A stretch of DNA of 64,000 bases, taken from positions 1 to 64,000 of IMG/VR virus record IMGVR_UViG_3300021255_003843; one strand, 5' to 3'. This DNA comes from a virus (lineage: Duplodnaviria > Caudoviricetes). Positions 17,988 through 61,000 of this stretch are shown in pieces (the first letter of the stretch is position 1; each line of letters begins with the position of its first letter). Under the pieces are notes generated by a model. It saw only the letters and a program-made list of their open reading frames with translations, searched no databases and was not told the DNA's origin. The position numbers were made by a program, and so were the translations under genes.

Positions 17988-18533
17988 ATGGCAGATAAAT
18001 CACATAAAGTTCTGATCGTCGTCGACATGCAGAATGATTTCATCAACGGTGCGCTCGGCACGAAAGAGGCTGAGGCCATCGTGCCGAGCGTCGTCAAACG
18101 CATCGAGGAATGTAAGGCGGAAGGACGCACGATCATTGTCACCCTCGATACTCATCAGGAAAATTACATGGACACCAGGGAAGGCAAGCATCTTCCGGTG
18201 CCGCACTGCATCGAAAACACAGAGGGCTGGAAGCTGCATCCCGATGTCGAGAAGGCGCTTCACGGTTACCTCCCTAAATACTATATTCCTAAACCAAGCT
18301 TTGGTACGCCAAACATTATCGATCCAATCGCCGCCATTAAGAGCGACGATGTGGAGATCGAGCTCATCGGTCTGTGCACCGACATCTGTGTCGTATCCAA
18401 TGCACTGCTGCTGAAAGCATTCTTCCCGGAAAACGAAATCAGTGTTCGCGCTTCCTGCTGCGCCGGCGTTACGCCCGCCTTGCATCAGGAAGCGCTTGAC
18501 ACGATGCGTTCCTGTCAGATCAACATTCTGTGA
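17988..18533 (+). CDS. pncA: Nicotinamidase (isochorismatase family)
   Basis: VVDMQNDF, DTH, PHC, K..FG, GLCTDICV; operon context. Confidence 0.9.
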   Translation: MADKSHKVLIVVDMQNDFINGALGTKEAEAIVPSVVKRIEECKAEGRTIIVTLDTHQENYMDTREGKHLPVPHCIENTEGWKLHPDVEKALHGYLPKYYIPKPSFGTPNIIDPIAAIKSDDVEIELIGLCTDICVVSNALLLKAFFPENEISVRASCCAGVTPALHQEALDTMRSCQINIL

Positions 18534-18540
18534 GGCATCT

Positions 18541-19347
18541 ATGAATGAGTATACGTTCGATGCGGTGAAAGCGAGAGATAATCTTGTCGCCGCAATACAA
18601 AACCTCGCGAAAGAGCAAAGCTTCTCCCGAGTCGTCATCGGCATCTCCGGCGGCAAGGATTCTACCGTTGCCGCCGCGCTGTGCGTCCGTGCCCTCGGCC
18701 CGGACAACGTGCTCGGCATTCTGATGCCTGACAGGCAGCAGCGTGAAGACGATTTTCGGGACAGCCTGCGCGTGTGTGAAAGCCTGCACATCCCGTATCG
18801 TACTGTCAGCATTTCTCAGATGCACAAAGATCTGCTCAGCGCTGTCGGCATCGAAGCCGGCGGACCGTTTAACGCTGATCTCTTCCAGAATCTTCTCGAT
18901 CAGGAAAGCAAGATATATTATAACAAGACAGCGGATATTAACGTCGGGCCCCGTCTGCGTATGACAGTGCTCCGTTATATCACGCAATCGATTGGCGGTC
19001 GCCTCGTCGGCACAGGCAATTTGTCTGAAAGCACGGTTGGCTATTGCACAAAAGACGGCGACACGTCCTGCGATTTCTCTTTGCTCGGCAAGCTCACCAG
19101 CATAGAGGTCGTCGAGATCGGTTTGACAATGGAAGAGCTGCCGCAAGATCTCGTGCTGAAAACGCCGTCCGATGGATTGTGCGGTATTTCGGACGAAGAG
19201 AAGCTGGGCGTTTCTTATGAAGCGATCCACAATTATATCCGCAATCCGATCGACATCAACGACCTGGTTAATCATAAGATCGCTCAACTCGAAGCGGCGA
19301 GCCGCCACAAGCGGGCGATGCCGCTGGTATTGGAGCCGTTTGCATGA
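18541..19347 (+). CDS. nadE: NH3-dependent NAD+ synthetase
   Basis: GISGGKDS, N..PRLRM, GTGNLSE, GYCTKDGD, PSDGL, DEEKLG; no glutaminase domain. Confidence 0.93.
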   Translation: MNEYTFDAVKARDNLVAAIQNLAKEQSFSRVVIGISGGKDSTVAAALCVRALGPDNVLGILMPDRQQREDDFRDSLRVCESLHIPYRTVSISQMHKDLLSAVGIEAGGPFNADLFQNLLDQESKIYYNKTADINVGPRLRMTVLRYITQSIGGRLVGTGNLSESTVGYCTKDGDTSCDFSLLGKLTSIEVVEIGLTMEELPQDLVLKTPSDGLCGISDEEKLGVSYEAIHNYIRNPIDINDLVNHKIAQLEAASRHKRAMPLVLEPFA

Positions 19348-20003
19348 TCAAAAACAAAATAGCATTCTATGGCGCGTTCAACCCACCAACGTGGGCGCAT
19401 GTCCACATCGCTCAGGCAGTGCAAAGACAGCTCAGCAATACGGGCAACGTCGTTGAAATCGTCTTCGTACCTTCGCGGGCTGACTACATCCTCAAAGAGC
19501 AGCATAAAAACTTGGCCTTCGAATCATATGATCGCGCGGTCATGCTGATGAGATTATGCGGCGTCATGAAAAACATGCGCGTATCTATCGTAGACATAGC
19601 TGCAGATCATCAGCCTCGCACCTATGAAAGCCTGTGCATGCTCAGAAATCGTGGGGAAAATTGCAGCCTGTTGATCGGAGCCGACCAGTTGCTTACCTTT
19701 GAAACGGGCTGGAAGAATCCAGATAAAATACTGGAAGAATTCGGCTTGGTTTGTGTATCTCGCGGCGACGTGAACGCGCATGAGATCATCGAGAAAAGCC
19801 CTCTGCTGCAAGCGCACATCGACAACATCGCAGTTGTCGATGTGCCGGAAAAAATCAAGGACATCTCGTCTACAAAAATACGTGAGATCCTCATGCGAAA
19901 GACAATAGACGAGAAGGCGATGAAGGAGCTGGAAACATTGATGCCGCCTATGCTGATCGGCTACGTGATGAACAGCTATGAACGCGCTACAAAAGGAGAA
20001 TAA
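19344..20003 (+). CDS. nadD: Nicotinate/nicotinamide mononucleotide adenylyltransferase
   Basis: GAFNPPTWAH (T/HxxH), LIGAD, W, ISSTKIRE. Confidence 0.9.
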   Translation: MIKNKIAFYGAFNPPTWAHVHIAQAVQRQLSNTGNVVEIVFVPSRADYILKEQHKNLAFESYDRAVMLMRLCGVMKNMRVSIVDIAADHQPRTYESLCMLRNRGENCSLLIGADQLLTFETGWKNPDKILEEFGLVCVSRGDVNAHEIIEKSPLLQAHIDNIAVVDVPEKIKDISSTKIREILMRKTIDEKAMKELETLMPPMLIGYVMNSYERATKGE

Positions 20004-20004
20004 T

Positions 20005-21201
20005 ATGGCATTGCCTTATATTATTGAATCACTGTTGGACACCGATTTGTATAAGTTCAATATGAATCAGGTGATCTTTCACAAACACACTGATCTGTAC
20101 GGTGAATACGATTTCAAGTGCAGAAACTCCGGCGTCATTTTTACGCCGGAGATGCTGCAGGAGATCGAACGCCAGGTAGACCACCTGTGCACGCTACGAT
20201 TCACAGAAGAAGAGCTTAACTATCTGCACACGATTCGCTTCCTAAAGCCGGATTACATTGAGTTCCTGCGGTTGTGGCACCCGATCCGTGACTACGTGTC
20301 AATGTCACTGTCTGAAGACGGCCAGCTTTCTGTCACAGTGCACGGCCCGATCTTCTCATGCATGCAGTTCGAGATCTACCTGCTGGAAATCATCAACGAA
20401 GTTTATTTCCGCATGGAATATGATTACGACAAGCTCGTCGCCTCCGCGCAGCTGCGCCTCGATAAGAAGATCGAAGCTTTCCAGAAAAGGATCTACAACT
20501 TCCGTTTCGCGGAGTTTGGCTGCCGTCGTCGCCTGTCTCGAGAGTGGGAAGACCACGTAGTCAAGACCTTTGCCGAAAAGACCACGGCCATGGTAGGCAC
20601 GTCAAACGTCTACCTCGCCATGAAGTACGGCCTGAAGCCTATCGGCACTTACGCGCATGAATATGTGCAGATGTACCAGGGCATCGACAAGATCCCGCTG
20701 GCGTATACGAACTACTACGCTCTGAAGGATTGGTACAACGAGTACCGTGGCGATAACGGAACCGCCTTAACCGACACGATCACTACCGATCTGTTCCTGC
20801 TAGACTTCGATCGCTCGATGGTTAACAACTTCACCGGCGTTCGTCATGACAGCGGCAACCCTATCACCTGGGGCGAGAAGATCATCAAGCATTATGAGAA
20901 ATACGGTGTCGATCCGAAGACGAAGACGCTGCTGTTCAGTGATAGCCTGAACTTCAAGAGAGCGCAGACGCTGTACGATTACTTCAAGGATCGCGCAAAC
21001 GTCTCCTTCGGCATCGGCACTTATGTCTCCAACGATACTGAGGTGGATCCGCTGAACATTGTCATCAAGCTGCAGCAGGTCAACGGTAATCCGGTTGCAA
21101 AGCTGTCAGACAGTGATGGTAAATCGATGTGCCGCAGCCCTGAATACCTTGAATACTTGCGCTCTGCGGTCAACTTCAGGCTTGCAAGACAGAGTCAATG
21201 A
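20005..21201 (+). CDS. pncB: Nicotinate phosphoribosyltransferase
   Basis: SLLDTDLYKF, EFGCRRR, GTSNV, GTYAHE, GVRHDSG, FSDSL, FGIGT, AKLSD. Confidence 0.95.
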   Translation: MALPYIIESLLDTDLYKFNMNQVIFHKHTDLYGEYDFKCRNSGVIFTPEMLQEIERQVDHLCTLRFTEEELNYLHTIRFLKPDYIEFLRLWHPIRDYVSMSLSEDGQLSVTVHGPIFSCMQFEIYLLEIINEVYFRMEYDYDKLVASAQLRLDKKIEAFQKRIYNFRFAEFGCRRRLSREWEDHVVKTFAEKTTAMVGTSNVYLAMKYGLKPIGTYAHEYVQMYQGIDKIPLAYTNYYALKDWYNEYRGDNGTALTDTITTDLFLLDFDRSMVNNFTGVRHDSGNPITWGEKIIKHYEKYGVDPKTKTLLFSDSLNFKRAQTLYDYFKDRANVSFGIGTYVSNDTEVDPLNIVIKLQQVNGNPVAKLSDSDGKSMCRSPEYLEYLRSAVNFRLARQSQ

Positions 21202-21479
21202 AAACTGAACACGATGCTGAGTACGCAAAAGGTGACGAGATTACAGCGATAGTTACAGGACCGGAAGATAAACAAAAGCAAGAGTATAGATTCCGCATTG
21301 TAGATAATCCGTTCGTTCTATGGAGCAGCAATCTCATCATGTATTACTGCAAAAGGCTGAGAGACGATGGATCGAACCTTCCGCCGGAACAGCTGTGGAT
21401 CATACCTGAAACTTTTATAACCGAGCTCGTCGGACCAAAGTCCAAGATCACACCTATGAACACAGAAGGACTTTTGTAA
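21198..21479 (+). CDS. Small SH3/KOW-like protein (divergent paralog)
   Basis: YAKGDEI..., WIIPETFI, C-terminus TEGLL. Confidence 0.65.
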   Translation: MKTEHDAEYAKGDEITAIVTGPEDKQKQEYRFRIVDNPFVLWSSNLIMYYCKRLRDDGSNLPPEQLWIIPETFITELVGPKSKITPMNTEGLL

Positions 21480-21488
21480 GGAGAATAT

Positions 21489-22463
21489 ATGAAACTGATA
21501 TTTCTCGATGTTGACGGCGTGCTCAATTATTCTCATTGCGAGGCGTCCGTCGGAGGCTTCTGCGGCGTTGAACCGGAGAAAGTGAAGCTGCTTAAGCAAA
21601 TCGTCGACGCCACCGGAGCGAAGCTGGTACTTAGCTCTACCTGGCGAAGGCATATCCCGGTCGGGATTCCTCTCGAAGCGCAGACAGATCCCTTCGCCTG
21701 CGAGCTGCTATCAAAGCTCGCAGACGAAGGCTTAAAGCTGTACGACATGACATCTACGGAAATCGAAGACGGCAACCGCAAGAAGCAGATCACCGCGCTG
21801 ATCGACCGGTATGTCAAGAGCGGACAGCCTGTTGAAAGCTGGGTCGTTCTTGATGACGATATCTTTGATGGATTCACTGAGAAGGATTTTAAAAAACACT
21901 TCGTCAAAACAAGCTTCTATGATCGCGGCCTGTGTGAAAGCCACGTGAAGAAAGCGATCTGCATCCTGAACGGAAGCGAAGACGAGAACAGCGGCCTGTT
22001 CTTCCTTGAGCCGATGCTCGTTCCGCAAGGCTGGGGCGCACTTGTCGAAGCTCTCGACAAGAACATCGAAGAATGGACCGAGACGGGCGACATAACCGGA
22101 TTCTCTGTTGTCGATTTCAAAGAAAAGTACGGCGAACTTCGTCTATACTATGATTGTCACTGTGCAAGCAAGAAAGTCCGCGATGATTTCGATGAAATGA
22201 TCGAGGACTATGCTTACGTCAGCGGCTTCACTTGCGCTAACTGCGGCGCGTTCCCGGTAGGCCAGACCGCCGAGGGCTGGACACTGCCGCTGTGCGAGAA
22301 ATGCGCGGATGGCAGGCCTATAGAACCAAGGGAGTTCGACGTCAAACGCCATTTTCGGCGTTATGATCCGAAGAAAGGCTGGACCGAGGAAGAGCGCAAC
22401 GTCTCCGACGTGATTCGAAGGGTTGGCCTTTGCAGAAAGGAATCGGAAGATGCAAAAATATAA
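21489..22463 (+). CDS. HAD phosphatase (RNA-repair HAD_SAK_2-like) fused to a KEKYGxLR/Zn-finger domain
   Basis: IFLDVDGVLN, VLSSTWR, VVLDDD; C-terminal KEKYGELRLY, CANC, CEKC. Confidence 0.82.
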   Translation: MKLIFLDVDGVLNYSHCEASVGGFCGVEPEKVKLLKQIVDATGAKLVLSSTWRRHIPVGIPLEAQTDPFACELLSKLADEGLKLYDMTSTEIEDGNRKKQITALIDRYVKSGQPVESWVVLDDDIFDGFTEKDFKKHFVKTSFYDRGLCESHVKKAICILNGSEDENSGLFFLEPMLVPQGWGALVEALDKNIEEWTETGDITGFSVVDFKEKYGELRLYYDCHCASKKVRDDFDEMIEDYAYVSGFTCANCGAFPVGQTAEGWTLPLCEKCADGRPIEPREFDVKRHFRRYDPKKGWTEEERNVSDVIRRVGLCRKESEDAKI

Positions 22464-22732: not shown

Positions 22733-22771
22733 GGGCCGCCTTTTCATCAAGAAAAAGGCGGCCCTATTTTT
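22733..22771 (+). terminator. Rho-independent terminator
   Basis: GGGCCGCCTTTT/AAAAGGCGGCCC stem followed by TATTTTT. Confidence 0.8.
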
Positions 22772-24871: not shown

Positions 24872-25055
24872 ACAGCAAGCACAAGTGTTCGATCCGGTTA
24901 CCGCCATTGACAACCATGCGCAGCACAGCTATACTGAAATTGATCTGCAGGCTCTCGTAAAGCAAACTGTACAAACTACTTTACGGGAACTCTCTTCAGC
25001 GCAGCTTGACAACGGCATAGATTGTACTTTTGATGTATCGAAAGGAGCAACCGAT

Positions 25056-26135
25056 ATGTCAAAAGAAGTCCGTCGCGTCATTGTTGGGTACAACGACGAC
25101 GGAACACCAGTTATCAAACGTCTGACGGCCGCCAATCAGTATGAGATGAACGATCGTATCGTGCAAGAATACATCAGCAATGGCCGCATCAGAGAATTTC
25201 TTGATACACAGGAGAAGCCAAAGCCCACGATTTCGTTCAAAGAGTATGCGGAGCGGTGGCTTGACACCTATATCGTCACCAGAAAGCCTAACACCATCGC
25301 CACCTACAAGAAAATCCTGCGGGCAATCCTGCCTGACTTTGGAGATCAGAACCTGGCAGACATTACAACCAACGAAATCCAGCTTTATCTCAACAAAAAC
25401 AAGGACCTGTCAAAGAAAACGCTGAAGGAACGCCTTGCCCGCATCGCTCAGATCCTCGACAGCGCAAAGGAAGACGGCTTGATCGAAGCGAACCCGGCGA
25501 AATCAAGGCGTCTTGTGATCCCGACAGACAAACAGCAGGTCCGCGAGGCAATTCCGCTTGATGTCATGCGTACAATCATACAGAAATCTGCACAGCTGGA
25601 CGAGAAAAGCAAACGCCTGCTGCTTCTTTTGATCACCACCGGCGGCCGCAGAGGAGAAGTGCTCGGTCTGCAATGGCAGGACATCGACGTAGAGAACAAT
25701 CTGATCCATATCCGCCGCAATGTGACCCACGCTAACGGCAACGTACCCGTCATCGGCACGCCAAAAACCAAAGCCGGAATCAGAGATGTGCCCTATGAAG
25801 TCGCCATCAGATCTATTGTTGATCCAACAGGCCGTCAGCCAGACGCTTTCATCCTTGAAGGCGGCGAACCAACGCAGCCCATGACCATGACCATGTACAA
25901 CAACACCTGGCATCGGATTCTGAAACAAATTCCAGAGCTCAAACCATACTCGGCCCACTACTTTAGGCACACCTACACGACACTGCTGAGTGAGTACACC
26001 GACGCCACACCGAAAACCATCCAGGCCCTTGCCGGTCACAAAGACATACGCACAACAATGTCCATTTATGAACATTCACGCAAGGAAAATCTGGAAAAAG
26101 CGAACGCTGATATGCACAATCTGTTATTTGCATAA
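25056..26135 (+). CDS. int: Tyrosine integrase
   Basis: AAAGGAG RBS before ATG 25056; catalytic R (TGGRRGE), K (TPKT), HYFRH, AGH, Y (TMSIY). Confidence 0.95.
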   Translation: MSKEVRRVIVGYNDDGTPVIKRLTAANQYEMNDRIVQEYISNGRIREFLDTQEKPKPTISFKEYAERWLDTYIVTRKPNTIATYKKILRAILPDFGDQNLADITTNEIQLYLNKNKDLSKKTLKERLARIAQILDSAKEDGLIEANPAKSRRLVIPTDKQQVREAIPLDVMRTIIQKSAQLDEKSKRLLLLLITTGGRRGEVLGLQWQDIDVENNLIHIRRNVTHANGNVPVIGTPKTKAGIRDVPYEVAIRSIVDPTGRQPDAFILEGGEPTQPMTMTMYNNTWHRILKQIPELKPYSAHYFRHTYTTLLSEYTDATPKTIQALAGHKDIRTTMSIYEHSRKENLEKANADMHNLLFA

Positions 26136-46048: not shown

Positions 46049-49000
46049 TTAGAAAGAATAGCTCATCGTATTAAAGCCTTGCTTCGAAAGCTCTTTAACA
46101 AACTTCTGTCCAACACGCTGCGCGACCTCGTCAAAGTCGGCGTCATCCTTGAACTGAGCTTCTGTGATGTTGATCACAAGCTCGCCAATGTTCTGGCTGT
46201 TTCCACTGAACGAGTTGCTGTCGATATTGCTGATTGTAGAACGATAACGCACAACCTTTGCCTCGTCTAAGAAGCTGCGTATCAGAGCGGTATCGTCGGC
46301 GCTAAGGAAAGCTTCGGGCTTAGCTTTAGTGCCGTCAACCCAGGCGGGACCAGTGAAATCAACTAAACCACCGGAATCAAAGCCAAATAATTTCTTAACG
46401 TTATCGGCCAGTTTGTTGGCAGTAGCAGATATTGTTTGAGCAACTTTACTCGTTGAACCAATTTTGTCTGTGCCAGAAGAAGCAGTGTCGTAATGAAGAG
46501 CTCTGGAATTGTCAACGTAAGCGCCATTGTTATCTTGAACATTGATCCTGTCAGCGTCTGTTGTGGTATTCGCATTATTGCCAGACCCAGAACCGGATCC
46601 AGATTTCTTACTCGATCCATTTGTCCCAATCCCGCTCAGACCATTATCGCTATGACTATAGACAGCATCACGCTTTTGCGCAGCAATCCAGTTATCATAC
46701 ATCTCGCCCCAATCGTAAAGCATTTGTTTCTGCTCATCCTCTGAAGCATTGATGTAATCCTGACTTGCCATCATGTAATTCAGGAACAAGTCTTTGCCGC
46801 TCAAGATATCAGCGATTTCTTCCCAGTAAGTGTGCGTATAACCAATCATTTGCTCGTAGGTGTCGATCCAACCCTGGATCATCTGCTTCTGCGCAGCGTC
46901 CATTGCTAAGCCGTACTCTTCTACGTTAGCCTTCAACCAATCGAGCATACCTTCCTGGCTCATCTGCATTACCTGGTTTACCTCGTCAGCCAGATTGTTG
47001 GCGTCTTCAAGCCAGGCTTCAAGATCTTCGCCGCCGTAGTTAACGAAATCATCGTAAGCCTGCAGCTGGCTATCGATCTGTTCCTTTTGGTAATCAGCTT
47101 CATCTTCGGCAACATCCCATGCAATCTCTTTCTCGATCTTCGCAATCTGCTCTCTCAGCTTTGCGGCATCCTTTGTGCGGGTGCTGTCCATCTCAATCAA
47201 CGCAAGCTGTTTCTTGTACTCAGAAAGCTCTTCATACTTCTCAGCTTCGTCTTCAGCGTCTTTTCTACGCTGAAGACGTTCGTCAATCAGATTCTTTTCT
47301 TCTTCAAGCGCAGCGCGTTTCTTCTCGATGTCTTTCTCAATCAAAGCCCACTCAGCGCGATAGCGCGCACGGATCGCTTCGATGATGGCGTCTTGCATGC
47401 TGACAGTACCGGCAAGCATATCACGCTCGCGCTGGATACGGTTGTTAATCTCAGTGTCAACCTCGGTTTCAAGATCGGTATGCAGCTTCAGTATCGCCTG
47501 TTCGTTCTCTTCAATCTTCTTTGTATTCTCCTGAATCGCGATGTTTGCTTCCTCGATCGCTTCTTCATAAGCGAGTACACTGTCATACAGGCTCTTCCAA
47601 TCGTCGCTGTTCTTCTTCGTCCTTGCCATCTGCTTCTTCGTTGTTTCGATATGCTTCTCAAGCGTAGCAATCAGGCGCTTCTGAGCATCGTTCTCAAGCT
47701 CGATCATCCGGTTCTGGTTGCCTATCTCGCTGGCGTTTTCATACTTTGTCTCTTGATACTGGATCATCTTAATCTCGTGATTCAGCAGAGCTTGTTCGCG
47801 CTTCAGGCGTTCAAGCAGTTTCTGAGCAGCGGACTTACCTCCGCCGCCTCCGCCGCCTCCACCACCGCTACGTCCTTTACCAAGATCGGTAGTCTGGAAC
47901 TGTAGTTTAATATTGCTGCCGTCGGATGTAACGACACCAGTTGCTTGCATACCCATTCGCGAAAGTGTTGCCATGATCTCTTGAATTTGAGCTTGCGCTG
48001 CACCAGTTGCTTCGTTGGCAAGCTGAGACAAGTCAACAGTTACTTGACCTTTATCAACCAGCAACTGAATTTGGGATCCGTCCAAACCAAGATTCTGCAG
48101 TTTCTCGTTGAACGTACCTTGCAGACCTTCTGTCAACATGGTGCCAGCAGTATTCAGATAATTGTCAATCGCTTGCTTATCTTCAGTTTCCCAATCTTTA
48201 ATTGCTTGCTGTACAGGGGTGCCGCCTTTTCTTAAATCTTTTTTATCTAAGCCAGTACCTTGCGCAATAGCAGAGAGCACGTCGTTACTTCTATCACCTT
48301 TTTTGTATTTCTCTCGATAATACTGATTGTTAGCGATAGCATTGATGCCCTGCCGGAACGATTTCATATATGCATTAGAATCTTTAATGTCTCCGCTAAG
48401 TGCTCTAACGCCGCTTGCAATATCTTTTGAAGCTTTATTAAATTTATTATACTGTTCAATCTTTCTTGCAGAGAACTCGCCGTTCAAGGCGGTCATATCA
48501 TATGTAAAATCCTCTGTTGCATTGCCGATCGCATAAAGAAGATCAGCTCCACCTTCAATATCACTCAACCATTGAGCAAAATCTTCGTGACTTGCTATAT
48601 AAGATTGAACAGTAGCAAGCTGTTCTGTGTTTAAATTTAGCGAACTGCTTGTACCAAATCCTTCACCAAATTGCTGCCTGGCAATTTCCATATTGTTATT
48701 GAATAATTGATCTCGATAAAGAGGAGCATAGCCAGTGCCTTGGATCAGGGCATTCCGCATCTGGTCATATGTCCATCCGTGCTCGCTATTATAAAAGATT
48801 TCATCAAAGCCGCTGCCAAGCATACGAGCTCCTTCGTCCTTCTTCAGATAATCTAAAAGCTCGGCGTCGCTATTGATGGCCGCTATCAGAGATTCCTGAT
48901 CTGAACTTTGCATAGCCAATCTTGCCAAACGGTTCTTATATGTCTCCGCTTCTTTTTCAGGTTCAACATTAGCTGCTGCACCTTGCGTTAAGATTTCATA

Positions 49001-52000
49001 AGCAGTTCTGTTATCAGTTATTTCGCTAATGCCAGTAATTTGTCCATCTTTCTCTGTCAGCTGTAACCCAGACATATCAAGCAGTTGTTCGACAAGCTCT
49101 CTAATTTTTTGATTGCCATCCTTAGCCAGATCTGAAAGGCTACTGAGCTCAGGGAAAGCTCCAACAATTGCTGCTTCCAAACTATCTCGTATCTTTTGTT
49201 GATCGCCTTTTAAATCTTTTGCAAGATCTTTCAGTTTTTCAGGTGTCTTTTTATATTCTTTTATTTCTTCATCTGTGAGTTGAGCTTTTGTCTGTAGGTA
49301 CTCCCAATCAGTCTCAGTAAGATTAGCTTGATTATCATACATTGTTTGAGCGATTTGAGCTGCTTGACTTGTGCGTTGAAGCTCAGAGCCTTCTGCGCTT
49401 ATTAATCTTCTCTCTTCTCTGGTGGGTCCTTTTGTACGATCAATGTCTGCAAGCCTCTGCGCAAGTTCAGCGCTACCAGCTTTCAGCTCTCCATTGCGTT
49501 CTCGCTCATAAACAGTTTGATAAGCAGACCCGGCTTTAAGCGCATCTATCTGATATTTCTCAAGCTGCTGCCCAGACATCACAGCAGAGTAAGCTTCGTT
49601 AAAGCCCTGCACGTTATTTGTCAGATAATCAAGCATCGTCGGGTTATTCTTTCTCAACTCTTCGAGCTTTGCCTTGTCGCCATTGAGAGCAGCTGTAATG
49701 TATTCAGATACACCGGACGTTGTCATCCTCGTAGCGTTCGGAGCCGTAATACCGTACGCGCCGTTCAACAGCATGGCGCGAATAGCGTCAACGTCGCCTC
49801 GCTCTATAGCCGCAAGGAAATCAGTGTTACTAAGTAGATCTGTCGCAGCGGTTGTTTTATATCCATTTGTACGCTGTACTAAATCGACATAACTTCTGAA
49901 ATCGCCTAAATTGCCATTACTCAGTTCGAAAGAATTCAGCATTGCTTGATAATCAGTGCTTTGATCTCCCTGTCCAAGCGCTGCTCTTGTATCCAGCGCT
50001 CGTGCCAATTGCTGAGCCCATGTCAACTGCGCGTCAGCTTTGCCGCCATACTGCATCTGCCATTGCCCATTCTCGCCGCGCACAATTTCACCAAGCTGAG
50101 AAGCACGAAGTCGTTGATTCACTTCAGCTACTTGAGCATCTGTCATGCCAGTAATCATATCGCTTGTAGACTTCTGCGTCCTACCAGGCTTAGACATCCC
50201 AAGCATTACCTTGATGCGCTCTAAGAAGCCTTCTGGTTGCTTAGTTTCGTATGCGGCATCACCAAGCTGATCCACCAATATTTGGTCGACAGCTGTGCTG
50301 ACAGTAGTGTTGCGAAGCTTCTCAACCTCTTCCATTGCATATCCGTAATCATTTGCTAAGCTGCGTTCACCAGACTGATATTGCGCAATAACGTTGTCGC
50401 CAATATTAAAGGCATTCTTGATCGTATTCCAATCCTCTGGCCGCTGTATTCCTTGACCAGAAGTTAAGCGTTTATAAGCCTGCTGCACCTCATCGAGGTT
50501 AGTGATCTGCTGTCCAAGCTGATTCATCTGGCTAATGCTATCAATGATATTGCCGTTAGCAATCGTCGTCAGTTGATTACTGAGACCAGATAACACTTTA
50601 CCTTCTTCTTCGAGTGCGCCGATTACCTCATTGCGTATCGCATCGGCCAAAGTCTTAGCAGCTTTGGCCGCAGCTTCGCTGTCAGAGCCATACGTCGCAA
50701 GATAATCAAATAAACCAGGGAAGCTCTTTAACTGGCTTTGAATACCATCTTCTAATCCTGCAAACATATCTTTCGCACCGTCGCCAGCTTCCATCAGCTT
50801 ACTGATTTCTTCCAGCGTTTTGGCAGTTGTCATTTGCGGAGTATAACCAACAAACGGATTATCTGTAAACGATTCCTGCGCTTTCTTTTTTAGATCGTCT
50901 AATTCCTTTTGATCAACTGTTTCTCCATTGTTTTGTTTTTCAATTAACTGCAAATATCTGAGAAGCTCAGACGATTGACCAAGCTGACCAAGATATTTTT
51001 CACCAGCCTGCTGCAAGCTCATATTATTATCAAGCACATCTTTTATCATCGCTCTATTGGAAGCGTTTGAGAAAACACCGCTTGTGTTATACAAATTTTT
51101 CCAGTTATCATACCATAAGCCTTGCAATAAACTTTCTCCATTTTTTCCGACAAGATTACCGTTTTCATCAAACGACAGCCCGAGCCCGCTCATCACGTCA
51201 GAACCTACATCCGAATTGGCCGCATTAAGCAAGCTAATAAAAGCAGGTAAATACTGATTTTGTCTTATAAGCTCTTCACCGACGGACAGTTTTAAATCAT
51301 CCCAATTGTCTGCAGTAACTTCTTTATCAAACCCAGAAAAACTCTTCATCGATTCTATAAAGCTTTGTGCTTCTGCAAAGTCATATGATTTCTCTTGTAT
51401 GTCAGACATCTGTTGAATTGTACTAACCCAGTTGTTAATACCTTCGGTGGCAGTTTTTATCTCATCATCTGTTCCGTATAAGCCAGTAATCCAACCAGCT
51501 TGATCAGAAGTGATCCGGCTTAATGCCTGCAAGCGATTTAAGTTACGAGTATTGTACGCCTTTCGATACTCAGCTTCCGCTAACTGGTATTCGTCAGCTT
51601 CTCTATTTCCTATCAATCCAGACATTGTATATACATTTGACAAGATTCCAGAACCGCTGTTGTTCTGCCATATTGCCTGTTCAGTCGGAGTTAAATTATT
51701 CTCTATATATTTACCAAACGCTTGCGGTGTCGCAAATTGATTAGAGCTTATTAATCCATAGAGCTTATTAGCCAATTCATACTGGCTGTTTTCAGATTGC
51801 ATTGCTTTATACGGATTGTACAAGCTTCTGTTCTCATAAGTCAATCCGCTTAAATCTGATAAAGTCTTGCGATCAAACAGGCCATATGCGCCGCTATAAT
51901 CACTATATCTCGCGTTTAATCCAAGCTTGTTCATAGCAGCGTCAAGAATAGGAGTTCCGTATTGCGCACCAAGATAATCATAACTGTAAGCAGCATCGTT

Positions 52001-55000
52001 CTGAGCTTGTAACAATCTCGCATTTAAGTCCGTTGAGGCCCCTGTCATCGTAATATTTCTATGCGTTACATCAGCGTTTATAAAATCATTTTTGTTAATA
52101 CCGATTAAGCTGAACAAGTTTTCGTCAATAGCATCCAGTTCTGTACCATTGTTAAGATATTGACTGATTGTATTGTATGCTACAACCCTGTCATACACAT
52201 CGTTAATATTCTGTACCATTTTATCTCTAAGCGCTTCGCGGCTTGTTGTTTGAGCTGAACCATGTCCTTCAGATAAAGCTTGAATCACCATATTCGTAAG
52301 CCCATCGGACACTTGGCCACTTCTTTCTTGTAATCTTAACCATGCTGTCTTTAAGATATCCAAAGCGTTATTTCTATCGGCGGTAATCTTGCTGCTATTC
52401 AATGTTGTAATAGCGTTTGCAACATCCGATCCATACACACTGGTTATCGCAGCCAGCTCGTCTTCTGTAAGCTGAACATTAAAATTACCGCTGTTTAATT
52501 GGGCGGCGGCTTTAAGTACAAGCTTTTGAGCCTGCTCTTCTGTTGTAGCCATCGACGCTTGGTTGATATCAAAAGCAGCGTTCGGTCTGTTGTAATTAAC
52601 AGAGTTAAACCAATTTTCTTGGAACCCTTTGCCGTTCGTAAGACCCAGCTGCTCAGCTTGCGCCTGAGTCATTAAACCGGCGTGAATCGCAGAGCCATAT
52701 GTGTTTACCAAAGCTTGTCTATAATCACTGCTGTTCAAATACGCCACATACTCTCGAGCAGCTGCGGCTTCATTGCCAAAGAAATCTTTGTCGCTCTTGC
52801 CAGCGTAAGTAGAAGATCCGGCTTTAATAAGCTCCTGATATTGAGACGGAATATTTGCCCAAGCAATAGTGCCAGAAGCTAACCGATTTGCAAACTGTCC
52901 GGCGATCGCTTGATTACGCATGGTTTCAAGTTCTGTGTTGAAAGTTGTTTGCGCCTCATGTTTCTGAATTCCATTTCTTGAAAACTGGTCAGCTAACTCA
53001 ACGAGATCCTTGATCAGCGTACCGGCTTTCAAAACTTCTTCTATGCCTTCAGACTTAAACTTGATCTTAATCTCAGTTTCTAACTCTTTCTTGCGTGCCG
53101 CATCAGTAGTGTTTATCCACTCATACAGCTCTGGATATGCACTCTTGATCTCGTTTAAATACTCTCCATATTTTTTCTTAGCTTCATCGGCATTAAGATC
53201 AAAGTTGACAATATTTGAAGCGACAGATCTCAGCTGTCTGGATGTATAAAAATTGTTGCCGTTAGCGGCCAGAGGATTTTCTTCGACATATCCTTGACCG
53301 GTATATGTTGTTGAAAATTGTTTATCTTGTCCGATAGTTGTTCTATAACCAGCAGATTTTGCGGCCTGCGTAAACTGCTGAAACTCTTGTCGAGTAGACT
53401 CGTCGGTTATACTATTCGCGTAAAGTTCCATAATTCTATCAGTAAAATCAAGGCCTTTATTTTCTTTTCTGAGCTTATTCCACTCTTCTTCATCCATTGA
53501 TTTAACGAAACCGCCAAGCAGATCTTGCATATAAACATTGAACCCGTGCGCACTTTCTTCTCTTGCTTTATTTAATCTGCTATTTTCAAGTGTCATGTAC
53601 AAACCTCTGTTTGCATCAAAGTTTGTCCTATTAACACCCCACTGTTTAGCAATTAAATCGTATTGATCCGCACTCGCAGTACCAGCATTTATAGCATTGT
53701 ATGCAGCAAGTTCTTGACCATAACTCATATTACCAGACAAAATACTGGCCGTATAATCCGTTAAAGAGCTTTGTAAAACTTTACCTTGTAAATAATCTCT
53801 GAATTGATCCAACGTATATTTGCCGGTGCCAACTTTAAGATCTTTAATCATTTTAGCAAACTCTGCGTCGTTTGTCATAACGCCCGTCAGATTAGGTATT
53901 TGTTTTTCAACATTGGATATCATATCAGCCATATCTTGATAAGAGCTGGCTTGCATGGCATATGACAACACATTTTTATATACATCTGTATATTCTTTAT
54001 CATTTAAACTATAATCATTAACAAATTGATCTAAATTTCGATAAGCATTTAATCCAGCTGAAGTTTTTATTCTATTTATGTCAAAATCATCGTAATTTAA
54101 TTCAATAATATCAGACGTTTTTTGAATTATTGATTGTTTATAATTGCGATATGCTTCTTCAGCTTTATCTAAATCGTCAAAACCAAACAATTGCTTTCCA
54201 TTTTCATCGGTGTAGAAATATTTGTATTTATTATTTGCTTTCTTAGCTGCATCCTGGAATTGTTGTGGTGCTTTATATGTATTTAAATATCTTTGTAAAG
54301 ATTCATGTAATGCATCTGGCAAATCTTCAGGCAATACTTGAGCAGTATCTTTCAATAATTGATCCTTTAAATATTTCCGCGCTTCTTCATCTCCGCCAGT
54401 TAAGCTATCTGTATCTCCAAGAATTTGACCTATAAAAGTATCAACTTCTTCTTCTCGCTGTTGTTGATAAGCGTCGGTATATAATTTCTGAATTCCTTGT
54501 CCTTTTGACCCAATTAAATAATTCCTAAACGAGTTTAAGAACTCTTTTTGATGTTCAGGATTAAGATGCGTGATCGACGTAAATACATTTTCTGAAAACC
54601 TGGCTCTCGTTTCATTTCCAAGTTTCTTTAAAAAACTGACGCCATCATCAGTATTTAAGTATATCTTAAATTTATCGTTTAATTTAGGATCATTAACATC
54701 TATGCCGAGCATTGAAAACAATGCCTTTTGATAGAATTCTTCATATGCTTTTTCAGAAGAAAGATCAATATCGTAAATACTATCAGGCATTATATCCGCA
54801 TAATCAAATGTTATTGCAGAAGTTGCATCAGCAATGTCAGAAGGCAACGTACCAGATGCCCAGTTGACCAAATATTTTTCATTTAATGAAGTACCTACAT
54901 TTTTATGTTCAACAGAATGTTGCGATGCATTATAAGCATCTCTTAATTTATCTGGTTTATACGCCGCTTCATAAGCAGCATATTTCATATCAATAGTATC

Positions 55001-58000
55001 TTCATCTATGTCTCTTTGTAATTTATCTATATGATCCTGACCTTGAGTAACAAATATTTTCCAATTTTTGCCAGCTTCTTCTGCGCTTTCAAATCCTTTC
55101 TTAACACCGTCAAGCGTACCAGCTAAATCGTTAAGAGAACCTATAAAAGCCTGTTGATCAGAAGCGGACATATTGCCCTTTGCTTTTTCCCAAGCCTCGC
55201 CATATTTCTGAACTTCATCAATTTGTTTCTGTAAAGGTTGTAAACCTTCTTTTCTGTTTTTAGAATAAGAATCAGCTAGCTTAATTTGCTGTTGAGCCTT
55301 TAATGTCGGGTCGTTTTGATCTACAAAATTTTTACGAGCGGAACCGATAGCTCCGGCAACACCAAGAACACCAGCGATCGCGACAACGGAAGCCAGTGTG
55401 CTAACCAGACCCGCCGCGCCTTTGAAAGTGTTAGAGGCAGCATTAACGATCAGCAGTTTAGTGGCTAGCGCAGCAAGCGCGCCGCCAATCACAACAGCAG
55501 CGGTAGACACAGGCCCAGCAACAGACGTGAGATCTTTCAGTCCACCGACAAAGCCAGTAACCATATCGACAGAGCTCACAAAGAACTGGTTGCTCGACAT
55601 GCTTGAAACCAAGCCATCGTAAGTAGCCTTCAATTCTTCCATCGCAGCCGTAATACTCTTCACAGCGATAGCATACTTGCTATCTGTCGTGCCTTCACTA
55701 TTCTCGGCTAAGCCAAGTAATCTGTCTAACTCAGCACCGCCGTCTTCTCCCATGCCTTCCATCAAGGTCTGGAACACGTTCGTCTGCCTGCCGCCAGCCA
55801 TTGTATACGTAATGTTATTGCGCTGAATATCATTCAGACTTCCCCAAACCTTAGACAGATCGCGAAGCACATCGAAGCTGTTTCTAAAGCTCTTGCCACC
55901 GCTTTCACGTAACTGAATGCCAGCGCCGGACAGAGCTTTTTCAACATCGTTGATTGACACGGAAGCGCCCGTCTCGTCGTTGACATAACCCTGATTCGTA
56001 ACACGATTCATGCGTGAGAAGATCGTCTGCATAGCAGTACCGATTACCTGGCCGCTCATCTGAGTTTTACTGATACCGATCGTCAGCATTGACGTTAATT
56101 CTTCGTAGCTGACACCAGCAACCTTCGCAGCGGCAGCGGACTTCTGCATACCCTTGAAGATCTCATTAGCTGTCGTAGCCGCGCTGTCGCCCAAAGCGGT
56201 CAGCGCGTCCATCGCTTCTTCAGCGGAGTTTACGAGGCCGTTCTGTATAGCAGTGGTGATTGCCTTGCCGGCGTCTGTCACCTTTGCGCCAGTAACGGTG
56301 GCGAATTTGATGATCGCGCCAGTACGGTCCTCTACCTGCTGGTCATTTAAACCCTGGCGATAAAGGTCCGACTCAACGGATGCAACGTTAGCAACGCTCG
56401 TCTTCAGCTCGATAGCGCGATCGACCGTCGCCTTTTTGACAGCCTGCATCTGCTCATCCGTCTTCATCGTAATCGCCTGGATGCCACGCATCTGGCTATC
56501 AAACTGCACAACAAAGTTCTTAGCTTCGGTAAACGCCTGACGGATCATCTTCCTGCCGAAGCTCTGCAGCAGTTTATCCGCAGCGGTTGCCGCCGTCTCT
56601 AAACCGGCAGCAAGCATATTGCCAATTGTCTTGAAGTTGCCGGCAGTGTCGCCGAACTCCTTCATTGCTTCCTTCGTGCTCTCGAGTGCCTCACGATAAT
56701 GGTCAAGACTTGCCGTAGCAGAATCATATTGAGCCTGCGCAAGGTTCCTGTCTTCGTCGGTAGCGGCATTATCAATAGCGTTCTTGGCAGCAAGCTGCTG
56801 TTCTTCCATCCGCTTGACCATCATATCGTTGTAGTTATATTGGCTACGATACTGATCATACATGTTCTGACGCTGGAGGTAAGTGCGACTCAGAGGATCA
56901 ATTGCAGTTCTCGATTGCCAGTTGCGGTTCATCTGCTCGACCTGCATCTCGGCACGCTTAGCTTGCATGATCTCTTGTTCGCCGCGAAGCTCTGCCTGCT
57001 TCTGACGCTGGCGAATACGCTCGTTGTAAGCAGCTTCTTCGCGTTTCACGTAATCATCGTTAAAGCGTTCAAGCGGCTTAAGGCGCTCATCTTTTTGTTC
57101 TTGTGTCAGATCAGACTTGCGGATTCTGTCAGCAATCTTGCGAGCATTATCTACATTTTTCTGCGCTTTATCTCTGACAGCTTCAACACCTTCAAGATAC
57201 CTCGAGACATCAATATTTTGCTCGTCGTATTTACGCTTATAATCTTCGAAGGTAGTGTTTACTATCTTCGCTTCATCTTCTGTAATAAACCCAGTCTTCT
57301 GTTTCTTCCGGTTGATCCTGGCTTGCTCTTCTCTAAAATCAAGGAAAGATTTTTCTTTATCAATATCGTATTTATCAACATCGGCCATGTAGGTGCTTAA
57401 CACCTGAGCAACGCGAGCTCTATCCTGCAGTTTAAGATGCTGCTGTTGAAACATCGTATTCTCGTCGATTTGCTGAGTAAGCACAGAATACGGTTCCATC
57501 TTCTTAGCAACTTCTTCGTCGCTCATGCCTTGATCTTTATATACTTTCTCCAACCTTTCACTCAGCTGAGAAACAACTTCTTTCGCTTCGTTTGCTCCTT
57601 GCTTCAGCTGCTGGAACGGGTCTTTGATAACAGTACCTTTTATTTTATCAAGCAGATTTGTTATATCTGCTTCTTTCATCTTGCCAGTTTCTTCTCTCGC
57701 ACCAGCAAGATAAGTGTCAGTTTCTGCTAAACGCTCTTCGTAAAGTTTTCGCTCAGCTGGGCTGAACGGATACTTCTCACGATCCTGCAAATGTTTCTGA
57801 AGTTCATTGCGATAATCTTCGACAGCCTGCAGCTGGTTGTTATACTCTTCGAACTGAACATCGAGCGCGGAAACTTTATTGGCACGCTTACGATTTGTTT
57901 TATCTAGATTCTCATATAAGCGTTTTGCTTTAAGTTCAGTGGTGTCAGCAAAGTCTTGATTCATCTGCTGCATCAAGTCTTTGCGTCCACCAACCAATTC

Positions 58001-61000
58001 TTTAAACTCCTGCTTCATGGCAGGCGGCAGCTGATCAAACTCTTCGCCATTCTTAATAAAATCTTCAAGCTGTCTATAAACAAAGCCAACGTTCGCAGCC
58101 CTGCTTCCGTAATAAGTTTCTGCTTGAGACTTACCTTCAAGCTCATTCTCTTTCTTTAGAAGACCAGACAAGAACTGCTGCTTCACGCTGTCAACACTGG
58201 ACCGCAAAGTGTTAGCATGTTCTTGAGCTTGAATGTAAGTATAAGCCTTACCAAGTTGAGCATTCTCATCTAAGATACGCTGACGTTGCGCTGTTATATC
58301 GCGATAAGCCTGCATATCAATCCCGCTGCCAGCAGCGAGTTGATCAACTTCGTCGTATACGCGCGCTACTTGAGCAGCTTCGGCCTCGGCTTTCGCGAGA
58401 TCACCGTCTACCGCGTAAATACGTTTAGAAGCTTCAATAGCCTCTTCTTTTGTCATATCCGGAGAATAGCGAGCCTGATCTTCCTGCGGCAACGTACTCT
58501 TGATCTGATTCATCTGCTCTTCGTGCTGTTTCGTCTCGATCTCAATACGCTGTAATTCAGCTTGATTCTCCTGTAGCTTTTTCTCAACTGCTTCACGCTG
58601 CAGCACGGTATCCTTGCCAGTGAAAGTAAAATCTAAACCGCCCTTCTGCCCTAAGAATAATTCTGGCAGAAGCTTCGCAGGATCGTCTGTACGGAACACA
58701 GAGCTAATATTTGGCTGGTTGATACCTCTTTCGATGAAACCCTGGGCTGCAGTAATACCATATTCGTTCATCTTCTTTTGAACATAAGAATCGAACGAAA
58801 CCTCAGAGCCATCTTCCATTTTAATCATGCCACCTTGGGCTTTTTGATATGCTTCTTCCTCGATTTCACGCTTAGATGCTATAATCATAGCCTGCATATC
58901 ATCAAGCTCTTCTGCAGACATCGGAGCCATCGGGTTAGCAATATCATACGCCTTCATTGTGCGAAGGTTCTTCATCAACGCTTGCGTTGTTTCGCCTGCT
59001 CCGCCATAACCCATATGTTCAAGAGCTTGAAGCAGAGCGTACGTGCGTTCCATATTGACGCCTTTAGACGCAACCTGAGATACAGCGCGCATTGTTCCAA
59101 CGTCTGTTGTGTTAAAAATAGAACGGAAGTTGATCTTATCAAAACCAAGATCGCGAAGTTCCTTCATGTTGATAGGAATCTCATGTCCGTTTACTGTTGC
59201 GGTGTAGATGTCCTCAGGAGAAGGAACATCCATGTTGTCGCGGCCTGTTACGTTAAACAGGCGACTAAAACGAGACGGAAGCTTAGACCATTGAGCACCA
59301 GCGTATAAAGCCTTCTTCATCTGAGGAGTTGCTTCAGTAGATGTAGCGTGCTTTAACCCGGCGGTAGCTTGGTCGTAAGTAGGTGTGCTTTGAATTGCCG
59401 CTGCTAAAAGATCTTTATTTTCAGGAGCGTATATATCAAACATTGCTGCACGACGCGCAGAAGCGTCGGCAGCACCCATTTCGTTTGTAACATCTTGACT
59501 TGTTTGAAAGAATAAACGACGATGAAGCGGATTGTCTACATTTTTAGCCGCTTCGGCAGGCATATCTACCTTCTTAATAATGGGCTCCGTACTTCCTTCA
59601 AAATCCTGAATGGCTTTTTCTTGAATGGCAACTACTTCAGCAAACGCTTCAGCTAAATCGCCATAAATCGTTTTTGCTTTATCCCCATCTAAGTCTGCGC
59701 TACCAAGCGTCGCCAAATCCGCCTCAGAAGCGAATAAGCCACTCGTAGTTTGCCCGAAAACTTTATATATATCTCTCGCTAAATTAGCATAGTTTTTGCC
59801 AACAACAAAGTTGCCAAACAGAGAAGGGCTTCTTTGAACAGCAACTTTTTTAGCATCAGGTCTGGCAAAGTCAACAAGTTGACCCTTGTTTAATGCGAAC
59901 ACACCTTCGAGATCTTCGTCACTAATGGTTAAAGCTGTGCCAGTTTTTTCTTGATATTGTTGACGGATTCTTTTCAGCAAGTCAGACCTACTAAGGCCAT
60001 TGATCGTTTCAAGACCTAGTATGGACGCCAGAGGAGACTTATTGATAGTCTGGTTAATAACAGAAGGGTTTGTACCAAAATCTATCCATTCACCAGAAGA
60101 CATGCGCTCTGTCAATGATTCAATCTCGTTCTGCACCCAGCTTTGCACGGCACTGCTGTTCACGTTTAGCTTGCCGCTTCTGATCTGCTTACCGAGATAG
60201 TTGTCAGGATCAGCAAACAAATATTCTCTGATGCCAGCCTCAGAACTTAACAGGTTGATGCGTCTATCAAATTCGTCGATTTGTTGTTGACGCATCTTCG
60301 GACTGAGGTTCATAAAGGCCATTGCTTGAGTGCCGATACCTTTTGCTCTTGTTTCAGCATCATCATATGTGCTCATACTCGACATGCCATAATGCTGAAG
60401 CATCGCCGTAAAACCTTTGCTGATCTCTTCAGGAGTGTGGAAGTTCGAGTACGCCTGCATGTTTTTAATCGTAGAAGCATCAACGAAGCCATGGTAATCG
60501 GTTAAGTCAATGTTGCCGCCAACGCCAGGCAAGATAAACCGACCGTTGGCGTCCGTTAAGCCGGCAGCTTTTGCCCATTCGCCAACAGTCTTATAACCGG
60601 AGATTTGGTGGAACGTACCCTTGCCGGCAACACCCATACGGCCCTGGAAATCTTTTTCAGGTAGAATACCATCCATGAACCAGCCGATACCATCGGCAAG
60701 CTTCTGCTTCACATTTTCATCATTGATTTGAGACAGATCAACAACAGCAAAGTTGCGATTCTTGAAATTGCCATGTGTGTCCCAGCTGTTTGACCAACCT
60801 TTACCGGTTGCATCGAAGTGTTTTCTCAAGCTTTCAATGTCTTTGAATTCATAAGCAGAATCAACGAAATCATTCCAGAAATTAGCGCCCTTACCGTCGG
60901 CAGTTACAAAGCCATGCTTCTGAGCCCATTCCTGCTCACGCTTCATGACAGCTTCATAAGCTTGCTGCTCAATCATGCGGACACCAGCATGAGTACCAGT

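Follow-up and report, generated by a model that had tools for sequence, protein, structure and literature searches.

An operon at positions 17988-21201 of a gut phage genome plausibly specifies all the enzymes of a deamidating (Preiss-Handler type) pathway that leads from nicotinamide to NAD+, and its benefit to the phage is best read, with a rough probability of 0.55, as the rebuilding of NAD+ in counter-defence. The genome is IMG/VR virus record IMGVR_UViG_3300021255_003843 (Caudoviricetes), 105,495 bp long, ~95% complete and of animal gut origin, and positions refer to the window analysed, i.e. its first 64 kb. NAD+ depletion is among the commonest outcomes of bacterial anti-phage immunity. 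NAD+ rebuilding is in turn a proven principle of phage counter-defence, established for NARP1 and NARP2 (10.1101/2024.02.11.579819) and for NARP3 (PMC13464706). Among the explanations weighed below we place counter-defence first, general metabolic support second, lysogenic conversion third and an artefact last.

The four genes lie on the + strand in the order pncA-nadE-nadD-pncB, with exactly the spacing described in the original prediction. pncA (17988-18533, 181 amino acids (aa), ATG to TGA) is preceded by a GGAGGG ribosome-binding site, nadE (18541-19347, 268 aa, ATG start) follows after a gap of 7 nucleotides (nt), the gene for a NadD/NMNAT-family mononucleotide adenylyltransferase (19344-20003, 219 aa, ATG start) overlaps nadE by ATGA, and pncB (20005-21201, 398 aa, ATG start), provided with an AAGGAG site, begins after a 1-nt gap. 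The ATG at 20005 is a sufficient start for pncB, and the longer open reading frame (ORF) from 19978 is not needed. The catalytic motifs are present, as predicted originally, and intact (triad and metal site, SGGxDS, GAFNPPTWAH/ISSTKIR, GTxAHE).

By every sequence test applied, the isochorismatase-fold protein is a nicotinamidase. PncA matches PF00857 (Isochorismatase, 79 bits), and aligns end to end (residues 7-180) with its best PDB match, Pyrococcus horikoshii PncA (1IM5, E 7.5e-15), with conservation of all six residues of the Asp/Lys/Cys triad and of the Asp-x-His...His metal site. It is 52-60% identical to isochorismatase-family genes adjoining pncB in rumen Clostridia; the NCBIfam nicotinamidase equivalog matches the N-terminus only, at 45 bits against a cut-off of 174. 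NadE (PF02540 NAD_synthase, 163 bits; TIGR00552, 154.8 bits against a cut-off of 63.65) retains the SGGxDS loop as SGGKDS, and its nearest PDB matches (2E18, 3P52, 3FIU, 1XNG) are short NH3-dependent enzymes. The protein is a single 268-aa domain in which the Pfam search found no CN-hydrolase/glutaminase domain. As judged from its domain content, NadE is an ammonia-type, NH3-dependent NAD synthetase, in line with the proposal that the operon uses ammonia rather than glutamine. One of the matches, 3FIU, is the Francisella enzyme, which prefers nicotinate mononucleotide (NaMN). The phage NadE could prefer NaMN, and act as an NMN (nicotinamide mononucleotide) synthetase, instead of using nicotinate adenine dinucleotide (NaAD). 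PncB carries both PF04095 and PF17767 (NAPRTase and NAPRTase_N), exceeds the cut-offs of PRK05321 (509 bits vs 379) and TIGR01514 (436 bits vs 269.55), and aligns with PDB entry 1YIR (3e-89), including the GTxAHE histidine. It is an NAPRTase equivalog and not a Nampt; the PHROG named for Nampt is matched at the superfamily level only (5e-23).

The label nadD given originally to the third gene is correct for the family, as shown by PF01467 (CTP_transf_like, 56.6 bits) and by the motifs GAFNPPTWAH and ISSTKIR, i.e. (H/T)xxH and ISSTxxR. It seems less apt for the individual protein, which stays under the TIGR00482 cut-off and in the PDB search is closer to eukaryote-type NMNATs (mouse/human NMNAT3/1, 5Z9R and 1KQN, ~1e-9) than to bacterial NadD (Bacillus subtilis NadD, 1KAM, 1.7e-4). 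No PHROG matched it. Its best PDB relatives are dual-specificity eukaryotic NMNATs; the enzyme may prefer either NaMN or NMN, and the last two steps may accordingly run in either order.

The chemistry of the four steps is established for the four families. PncA would hydrolyse nicotinamide to nicotinate and NH3, PncB would convert nicotinate and phosphoribosyl pyrophosphate (PRPP), with ATP, into NaMN, the NadD/NMNAT-family enzyme would adenylate NaMN with ATP to NaAD, and the glutaminase-less NadE would turn NaAD, ATP and free NH3 into NAD+. The nitrogen released in the first step would balance that taken up in the last. In an alternative order, amidation by NadE would come first, turning NaMN into NMN, from which the NMNAT-like enzyme would form NAD+; the net chemistry would be equal. 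With domain matches and intact motifs for each enzyme, the claim that the four enzymes of a deamidating nicotinamide-to-NAD+ route are present in a real phage is upheld.

The same gene order is found in other viruses. An IMG/VR scan with PncB yielded 33 viral loci, near-duplicates included, which were inspected with 8-kb flanks. The order pncA-nadE-NMNAT-pncB occurs in five other viral contigs, one (L003) 90-98% identical to the window operon, the others (L004, L005, L007/L008) 53-76% identical (34-38% for the NMNAT). L005 lies internally in a genome of 114,344 bp that is complete and bears direct terminal repeats; genes for Erf, an exonuclease, DnaB and an RNA ligase flank the cluster. The terminase and RNA polymerase of that genome are only 28% and 30% identical to those of the window phage. 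At least seven further viral lineages have the full pathway in other gene orders and with other adenylyltransferases, and 13 distinct viral lineages, that of the window included, have pncA, pncB, nadE and an adenylyltransferase. In a Pfam tally covering the 148 ORFs that lie up to 3 kb from pncB at 21 distinct viral loci, NAD_synthase, Isochorismatase and CTP_transf_like were counted 13 times each. Three adenylyltransferase solutions could be told apart: the NMNAT-like enzyme of the window, a NadM-like enzyme (L018, L019-21, L022, L031, L032), and NadD-NadE fusions encoded by ORFs of 415-486 aa (L006:9578-10825, L010:8020-9342, L035:9079-10539); L025 has yet another short adenylyltransferase. 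The enzymes were retrieved by iterative phmmer, and distinguished from the NadE of fusion proteins by length and coordinates. Complete genomes are represented by the records of L006 (190 kb), L020 (233 kb) and L022 (333 kb), which have the full pathway, give no integrase match and correspond to the published ‘NAD-jumbo phages’.

Among GenBank phages, megablast with the operon gave no match, and tblastn with PncB hit 19 records, none of them above 45% identity. The two top tblastn matches fall in ‘Acinetobacter phage MD-2021a’ (L120, CAKLQH020000008.1), which was discarded: the chromosomal genes serB, dtd, psd and phoR/phoB surround pncB, and the contig, labelled phage in the GenBank/INPHARED set, is a mislabelled bacterial one. 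In Moraxella phage Mcat17 the PncB match is at the end of the record, and in Atu_ph07 pncB is near a Nudix gene, with no recognisable four-gene cluster.

An exact counterpart of the operon resides in bacteria. The 80 best bacterial PncB matches (species representatives, taken with 6-kb flanks) are 72-76% identical to the phage protein, and all come from metagenome-assembled genomes (MAGs) of the rumen or gut, nearly all labelled Clostridia (Bacillota). Order and orientation of the four genes are identical in three loci (L046, L073, L087), which share with the window 55-58% (PncA), 57-60% (NadE), 37-38% (NMNAT) and 74% (PncB) identity; three more loci have nadE-NMNAT-pncB. The L046 neighbours, encoding a Mur ligase, an M29 aminopeptidase and an FMN-dependent dehydrogenase, denote a chromosomal context. 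The four-gene order is native to rumen Clostridia chromosomes; the architecture is therefore bacterial, and the phage version descends from such an operon. In L046 (5371-7194, a rumen Clostridiales MAG) the NMNAT and PncB frames open as one 607-aa ORF, by fusion or by a missing stop codon.

Viral and bacterial copies are well separated. The starred clade of the PncB tree groups 79 bacterial sequences and one viral sequence, and outside it fall 32 of the 33 viral sequences and one MAG contig. The viral/bacterial split has a support of 82/93 in the NMNAT tree, and of 100/99 in a tree of the four concatenated proteins from 5 viral and 8 bacterial clusters, in which end branches measure 0.5-0.7 changes per site for the viral and 0.03-0.35 for the bacterial clusters. 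In G+C and in G+C at third codon positions (GC3) the viral clusters follow their own phage genomes (0.41-0.52 G+C), the bacterial operons ranging from 0.55 to 0.68 in G+C and from 0.70 to 0.88 in GC3. The window cluster has a G+C of 0.49-0.54 and a GC3 of 0.60-0.69, the mean GC3 of the phage genes being 0.55 ± 0.09, and the L004 cluster has a G+C of 0.40-0.46. Because of the 100/99 split and of the match of cluster G+C to the phage genomes, the capture appears old. Tree and composition together argue against recent or repeated capture from the sampled bacteria. They fit a single old transfer with later spread from phage to phage, but, the trees being unrooted and the sampling of bacteria limited, do not prove a single origin. 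On the preferred explanation the architecture came from an operon of gut or rumen Clostridia, and has been kept since as a separate phage lineage. The viral survey and the trees against bacterial copies that had been called for accordingly depict a recurrent cluster on its own side of the split, and not the one-off capture considered as a way in which the original prediction could fall.

These data also speak strongly against the view that the operon is host sequence wrongly joined to a phage contig, or was acquired recently by chance and serves no function in the phage. The 72-76% identity of PncB to proteins of rumen Clostridia is compatible with such an origin, and bacterial DNA is indeed present in the phage sets of IMG/VR and GenBank, as the ‘Acinetobacter phage MD-2021a’ contig illustrates. 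Yet phage genes lie on both flanks of the operon, the L005 cluster is internal to a complete genome with terminal repeats, the four ORFs are intact with their motifs, composition is ameliorated to that of the phage, and viral loci share other genes with the phage while bacterial loci share essentially none. A chimera and a recent one-off capture were both rejected on the grounds of flanking phage genes, recurrence, split and composition; a neutral passenger or artefact of any kind is largely refuted, and we regard it as very improbable.

That the source is a phage is clear from the portal, TerL, head, tail, endolysin and integrase genes of the record. To the left of the operon are genes for NrdD, PhoH, an RNA ligase, three tRNAs and an endolysin, the left arm of the window further encoding ThyX, a dUTPase, ClpP, RuvC and a NrdG-like protein. 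To the right are a tyrosine integrase gene (24885-26135, 3.7 kb downstream), tail genes and an ORF of 5,453 aa; the latter (46049-62410, - strand) is a single frame adjoining the tail genes. Outside the window the record encodes the head protein, portal, large terminase, a reverse transcriptase, SSB, DnaB, Toprim proteins, and two phrog_8308 proteins, one of which matches PF05183 (RdRP-type polymerase).

The proximity of the integrase raises the question of lysogenic conversion, according to which the operon would be prophage-expressed cargo (a moron) giving the lysogen extra salvage of niacin or nicotinamide in the gut. In L003 the integrase is found ~2 kb after pncB, terminator-like hairpins delimit the unit, and the architecture is bacterial, all of which speaks for such cargo. 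The operon is, on the other hand, contiguous and co-directional with early/metabolic genes; in the L005 genome the cluster lies at ~32-36 kb among replication genes, with recombinases at 60, 103 and 112 kb; complete phages of 190-333 kb carry the full pathway with no integrase match; and related bacteria often own a copy. Lysogenic conversion is on balance unlikely.

A more serious competitor is a general auxiliary metabolic operon, supplying more NAD+ in any infection for the host NAD+-dependent ligase during replication of a 105-kb genome, and redox cofactors for ThyX and for ribonucleotide reduction. The operon sits in a long co-directional block of nucleotide-metabolism genes, with NrdD/NrdG, ThyX, dUTPase and PhoH as neighbours. 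Searches of the phage genome for a DNA ligase, of one type or the other, and for Tpt1 were negative. Bacterial DNA ligase is NAD+-dependent; a phage without its own ligase therefore relies on a host enzyme consuming NAD+. The paper describing gut jumbo phages reads clusters of this sort first as an independent NAD+ supply (PMC11662467), and the salvage pathway of Vibrio phage KVP40 was presented in metabolic terms, in a work cited there as reference 71, before NARP2 was defined. What this explanation leaves unaccounted for is pncA, useful only with free nicotinamide, which lies no more than 8 kb from pncB at 29 of 33 viral loci vs 39 of the 80 bacterial ones (6-kb flanks), an excess that is suggestive only, because near-duplicates are included and the viral flanks are wider. 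Moreover, no phage NAD+-consuming enzyme was found, whether NAD+ ligase or Tpt1, and no SIR2 or ART domain appears in the Pfam tallies of the phage. General metabolic support is a possible but less probable account of the operon, and is not mutually exclusive with counter-defence.

Counter-defence, which we prefer, starts from the observation that the route begins at nicotinamide, the product released by NADase effectors, and makes no use of ADP-ribose. The operon would keep the NAD+ pool, or rebuild it on collapse, the clearest case being that of SIR2/TIR/DSR-type defences, which cut NAD+ to ADP-ribose and nicotinamide. The route needs only nicotinamide, PRPP and ATP, and would therefore be blind to how the defence treats the ADP-ribose half. 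Expression during infection is suggested by the co-directional nucleotide-metabolism block and by the failure to find any gene for a host NAD regulator in its genome.

Several points weigh against counter-defence. Nicotinamide is a product inhibitor of sirtuin-type NADases, and its removal could relieve inhibition and harm the phage. The route is costlier than NARP1-3: besides PRPP it requires ATP at three steps, and ADP-ribose is not reused. As the operon is also present in related bacteria, the phage may gain no more than extra capacity from its own copy. The adenylyltransferase scores 92.7 bits with TIGR00482, under the NCBIfam equivalog cut-off of 112.45, and sits in the NMNAT tree on a very long branch (2.5 changes per site). 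A sigma-70 scan gave nothing above shuffled background, and recognised no promoter directly upstream of pncA. Finally, a general metabolic benefit fits the same genomic facts equally well.

The operon is part of a larger unit. Tight gene packing runs on past pncB into a 93-aa ORF (21198-21479, +), which overlaps pncB by ATGA and has no assigned family, and then into a gene for a 324-aa HAD_SAK_2 protein (21489-22463, +), the last of the unit. The six genes (the four NAD genes, the 93-aa ORF and the HAD_SAK_2 gene) are enclosed by terminator-like hairpins, both on the + strand. One, at 17935-17952, 36 nt before the pncA start, has a 7-bp stem with 4 G-C pairs and a T-run tail TATTTTTTAT, and is probably the end of the upstream unit; the other, at 22733-22764, is a strong one (12-bp stem, 8 G-C pairs, T-run) at the 3' end of the unit. 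The 93-aa ORF had no match in Pfam, NCBIfam or PHROG, and only unnamed clusters in the Atlas. It is missing after pncB in L003, the closest relative, and the conserved core is therefore represented by the four NAD genes. The four-gene operon as originally delimited thus holds as a core and not as the extent of the unit. A 96-aa ORF just upstream of pncA (17604-17894) has no family match. The hairpin-promoter tail motif is not enriched in the genome (51 matches vs 41 expected), and has no site upstream of pncA.

The HAD_SAK_2 domain (PF18143, 77 bits, residues 3-153; phrog_1818) is N-terminal, and belongs to a phosphatase of the RNA-repair type. Atlas structure rows span residues 1-185 only, no PDB relative was found for the protein, and its C-terminal half matched no family or named Atlas cluster. 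A homologue, 44% identical, is encoded ~7 kb downstream of the NAD cluster in L005. In the window phage an Rnl-type RNA ligase gene (9597-10724) is found 7 kb upstream of the operon, while the HAD_SAK_2 gene closes the unit, and RNA ligase homologues adjoin pncA/pncB in L014, L022, L023 and L033. NAD+ salvage and RNA repair genes look recurrently linked across viral loci. The Pfam tally of viral pncB neighbourhoods has RNA ligase, Nudix, Tpt1, NADAR and CinA clustered nearby, and this assortment of RNA-repair and NAD/ADP-ribose genes fits a ‘damage-repair’ neighbourhood.

Additional entities were met in the viral loci. A family of eight ORFs (149-258 aa) occurs inside or beside pncA/pncB/nadE clusters in 8 of the 21 distinct viral loci (L014:7442-7969, L015:7447-7992, L018:3920-4474, L019:4668-5243, L022:6730-7347, L029:9710-10156, L032:5798-6313, L034:4600-5373). 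It probably corresponds to DUF5662 (PF18907), counted eight times in the Pfam tally of the viral loci, a candidate assignment, and may have gone unnoticed so far as a further part of phage NAD+ clusters. No paper on DUF5662 was found, no solved relative of the L015 member was found, and PF18907 was not detected in the window phage. In the record of L006 (G003, 189,572 bp, terminal repeats), which also has pncA, pncB and the NadD-NadE fusion, the terminase match (85996-87489) is interrupted by five in-frame TAG codons and no other stops, suggesting a TAG-recoded phage. The gut phage Phass-1 (L121, OQ749652.1, 6998-10100), from the ‘code 15’ clade, carries an annotated nicotinamidase gene with a PRPS-like gene directly after it, and then a Nampt-like gene. 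In this trio a NARP1-like pair comes after an enzyme expected to break down the nicotinamide substrate of NARP1.

How far the operon is novel has to be restated. NARP1 (Adps + Namat) and NARP2 (Nampt + Nmnat) are as the original prediction described them, and the paper reporting them makes no mention of PncA, PncB, NadE or a deamidated route (10.1101/2024.02.11.579819). The operon cannot be ranked as the ‘third’ NAD+ reconstitution pathway, that place being taken by NARP3 (PnuC + NadR), published in August 2026 (PMC13464706). Neither is a phage Preiss-Handler cluster new in itself. In 2024 complete salvage or Preiss-Handler pathways were reported in 174 of 668 gut jumbo phages (Microbiome 2024, PMC11662467), among which phage Kuafu_71 has a pncB-nadD-nadE cluster whose role against NAD+ depletion was proposed, not tested (PMC11662467). 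In the main text of that paper pncA is named in the Discussion only (PMC11662467). Our literature search found no nicotinamidase-based or ‘NARP4’ phage countermeasure, and no experimental test of the deamidating route. On the evidence of the genomes, what seems new is a complete nicotinamide-to-NAD+ route in a ~105-kb integrase-bearing phage, an exact bacterial counterpart from which the phage copies stand apart as a long-resident lineage, and the assembly of the same pathway with different adenylyltransferases in different phages. We suggest, tentatively and at somewhat less than even odds, that the operon represents a fourth, deamidation-based NAD+ reconstitution pathway, which stems from a single Clostridia capture, is kept in gut phages ranging from ~100-kb integrase-bearing ones to jumbo phages, and allows replication despite NAD+ destruction by SIR2/TIR/DSR or aRES defences.

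Each NAD+-rebuilding route (NARP1, 2 and 3) has altered the understanding and the engineering of phage host range. If the reading is true, even the bacterial salvage pathway with the most steps and the highest ATP cost can serve phages in rebuilding NAD+, and the principle extends to phages that infect Clostridia of the gut and rumen; should the operon do no more than boost metabolism in general, it is an ordinary auxiliary metabolic gene cluster. The genomes supply a compact operon, its natural variants with three different adenylyltransferases, and bacterial counterparts that can serve as controls.

The closest known systems are the NAD-jumbo phages (PMC11662467), in which a phage-borne, clustered deamidated route has likewise been recovered as a complete pathway from animal gut metagenomes, and counter-defence suggested. 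NAD-jumbo phages exceed 200 kb, whereas the window phage is about half that length and has an integrase. Clusters of the Kuafu_71 type start from nicotinate, while that of the window opens with pncA, and thus from nicotinamide, the NADase product; it differs from the NAD-jumbo clusters also in having the gene order of the Clostridia operon and an NMNAT-like adenylyltransferase. The rumen Clostridia operons (L046, L073, L087) have the same four families in identical order and orientation, but the phage copies occupy their own side of the tree, with phage-like G+C and longer branches, and the Pfam tallies of the window phage contain no regulator of the NrtR/NiaR type. NARP2 (NadV/NatV of Vibrio phage KVP40) would match the window route in inputs (nicotinamide, PRPP and ATP) and output (NAD+), and similarly has a type II phosphoribosyltransferase followed by a mononucleotide adenylyltransferase. 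NARP2, however, proceeds in two steps via NMN, and the window route in four via nicotinate, NaMN and NaAD, needing a nicotinamidase and an NAD synthetase. The genes are not orthologous, and rescue from defence is proven for NARP2 and proposed for the window operon. NARP1 and NARP3 are phage operons rebuilding NAD+ as well, but NARP1 reuses ADP-ribose via ADP-ribose pyrophosphate (ADPR-PP), and NARP3 imports nicotinamide riboside; the window route would do neither, and no PRPS-like, PnuC or NadR family was found in the Pfam tallies of the phage. An orthology test against the NARP1, NARP2 and NARP3 genes places the window operon outside all three. By ignoring ADP-ribose, the window route should also be indifferent to the aRES defence that forms ADPR-1''-phosphate (10.64898/2026.01.28.702374).

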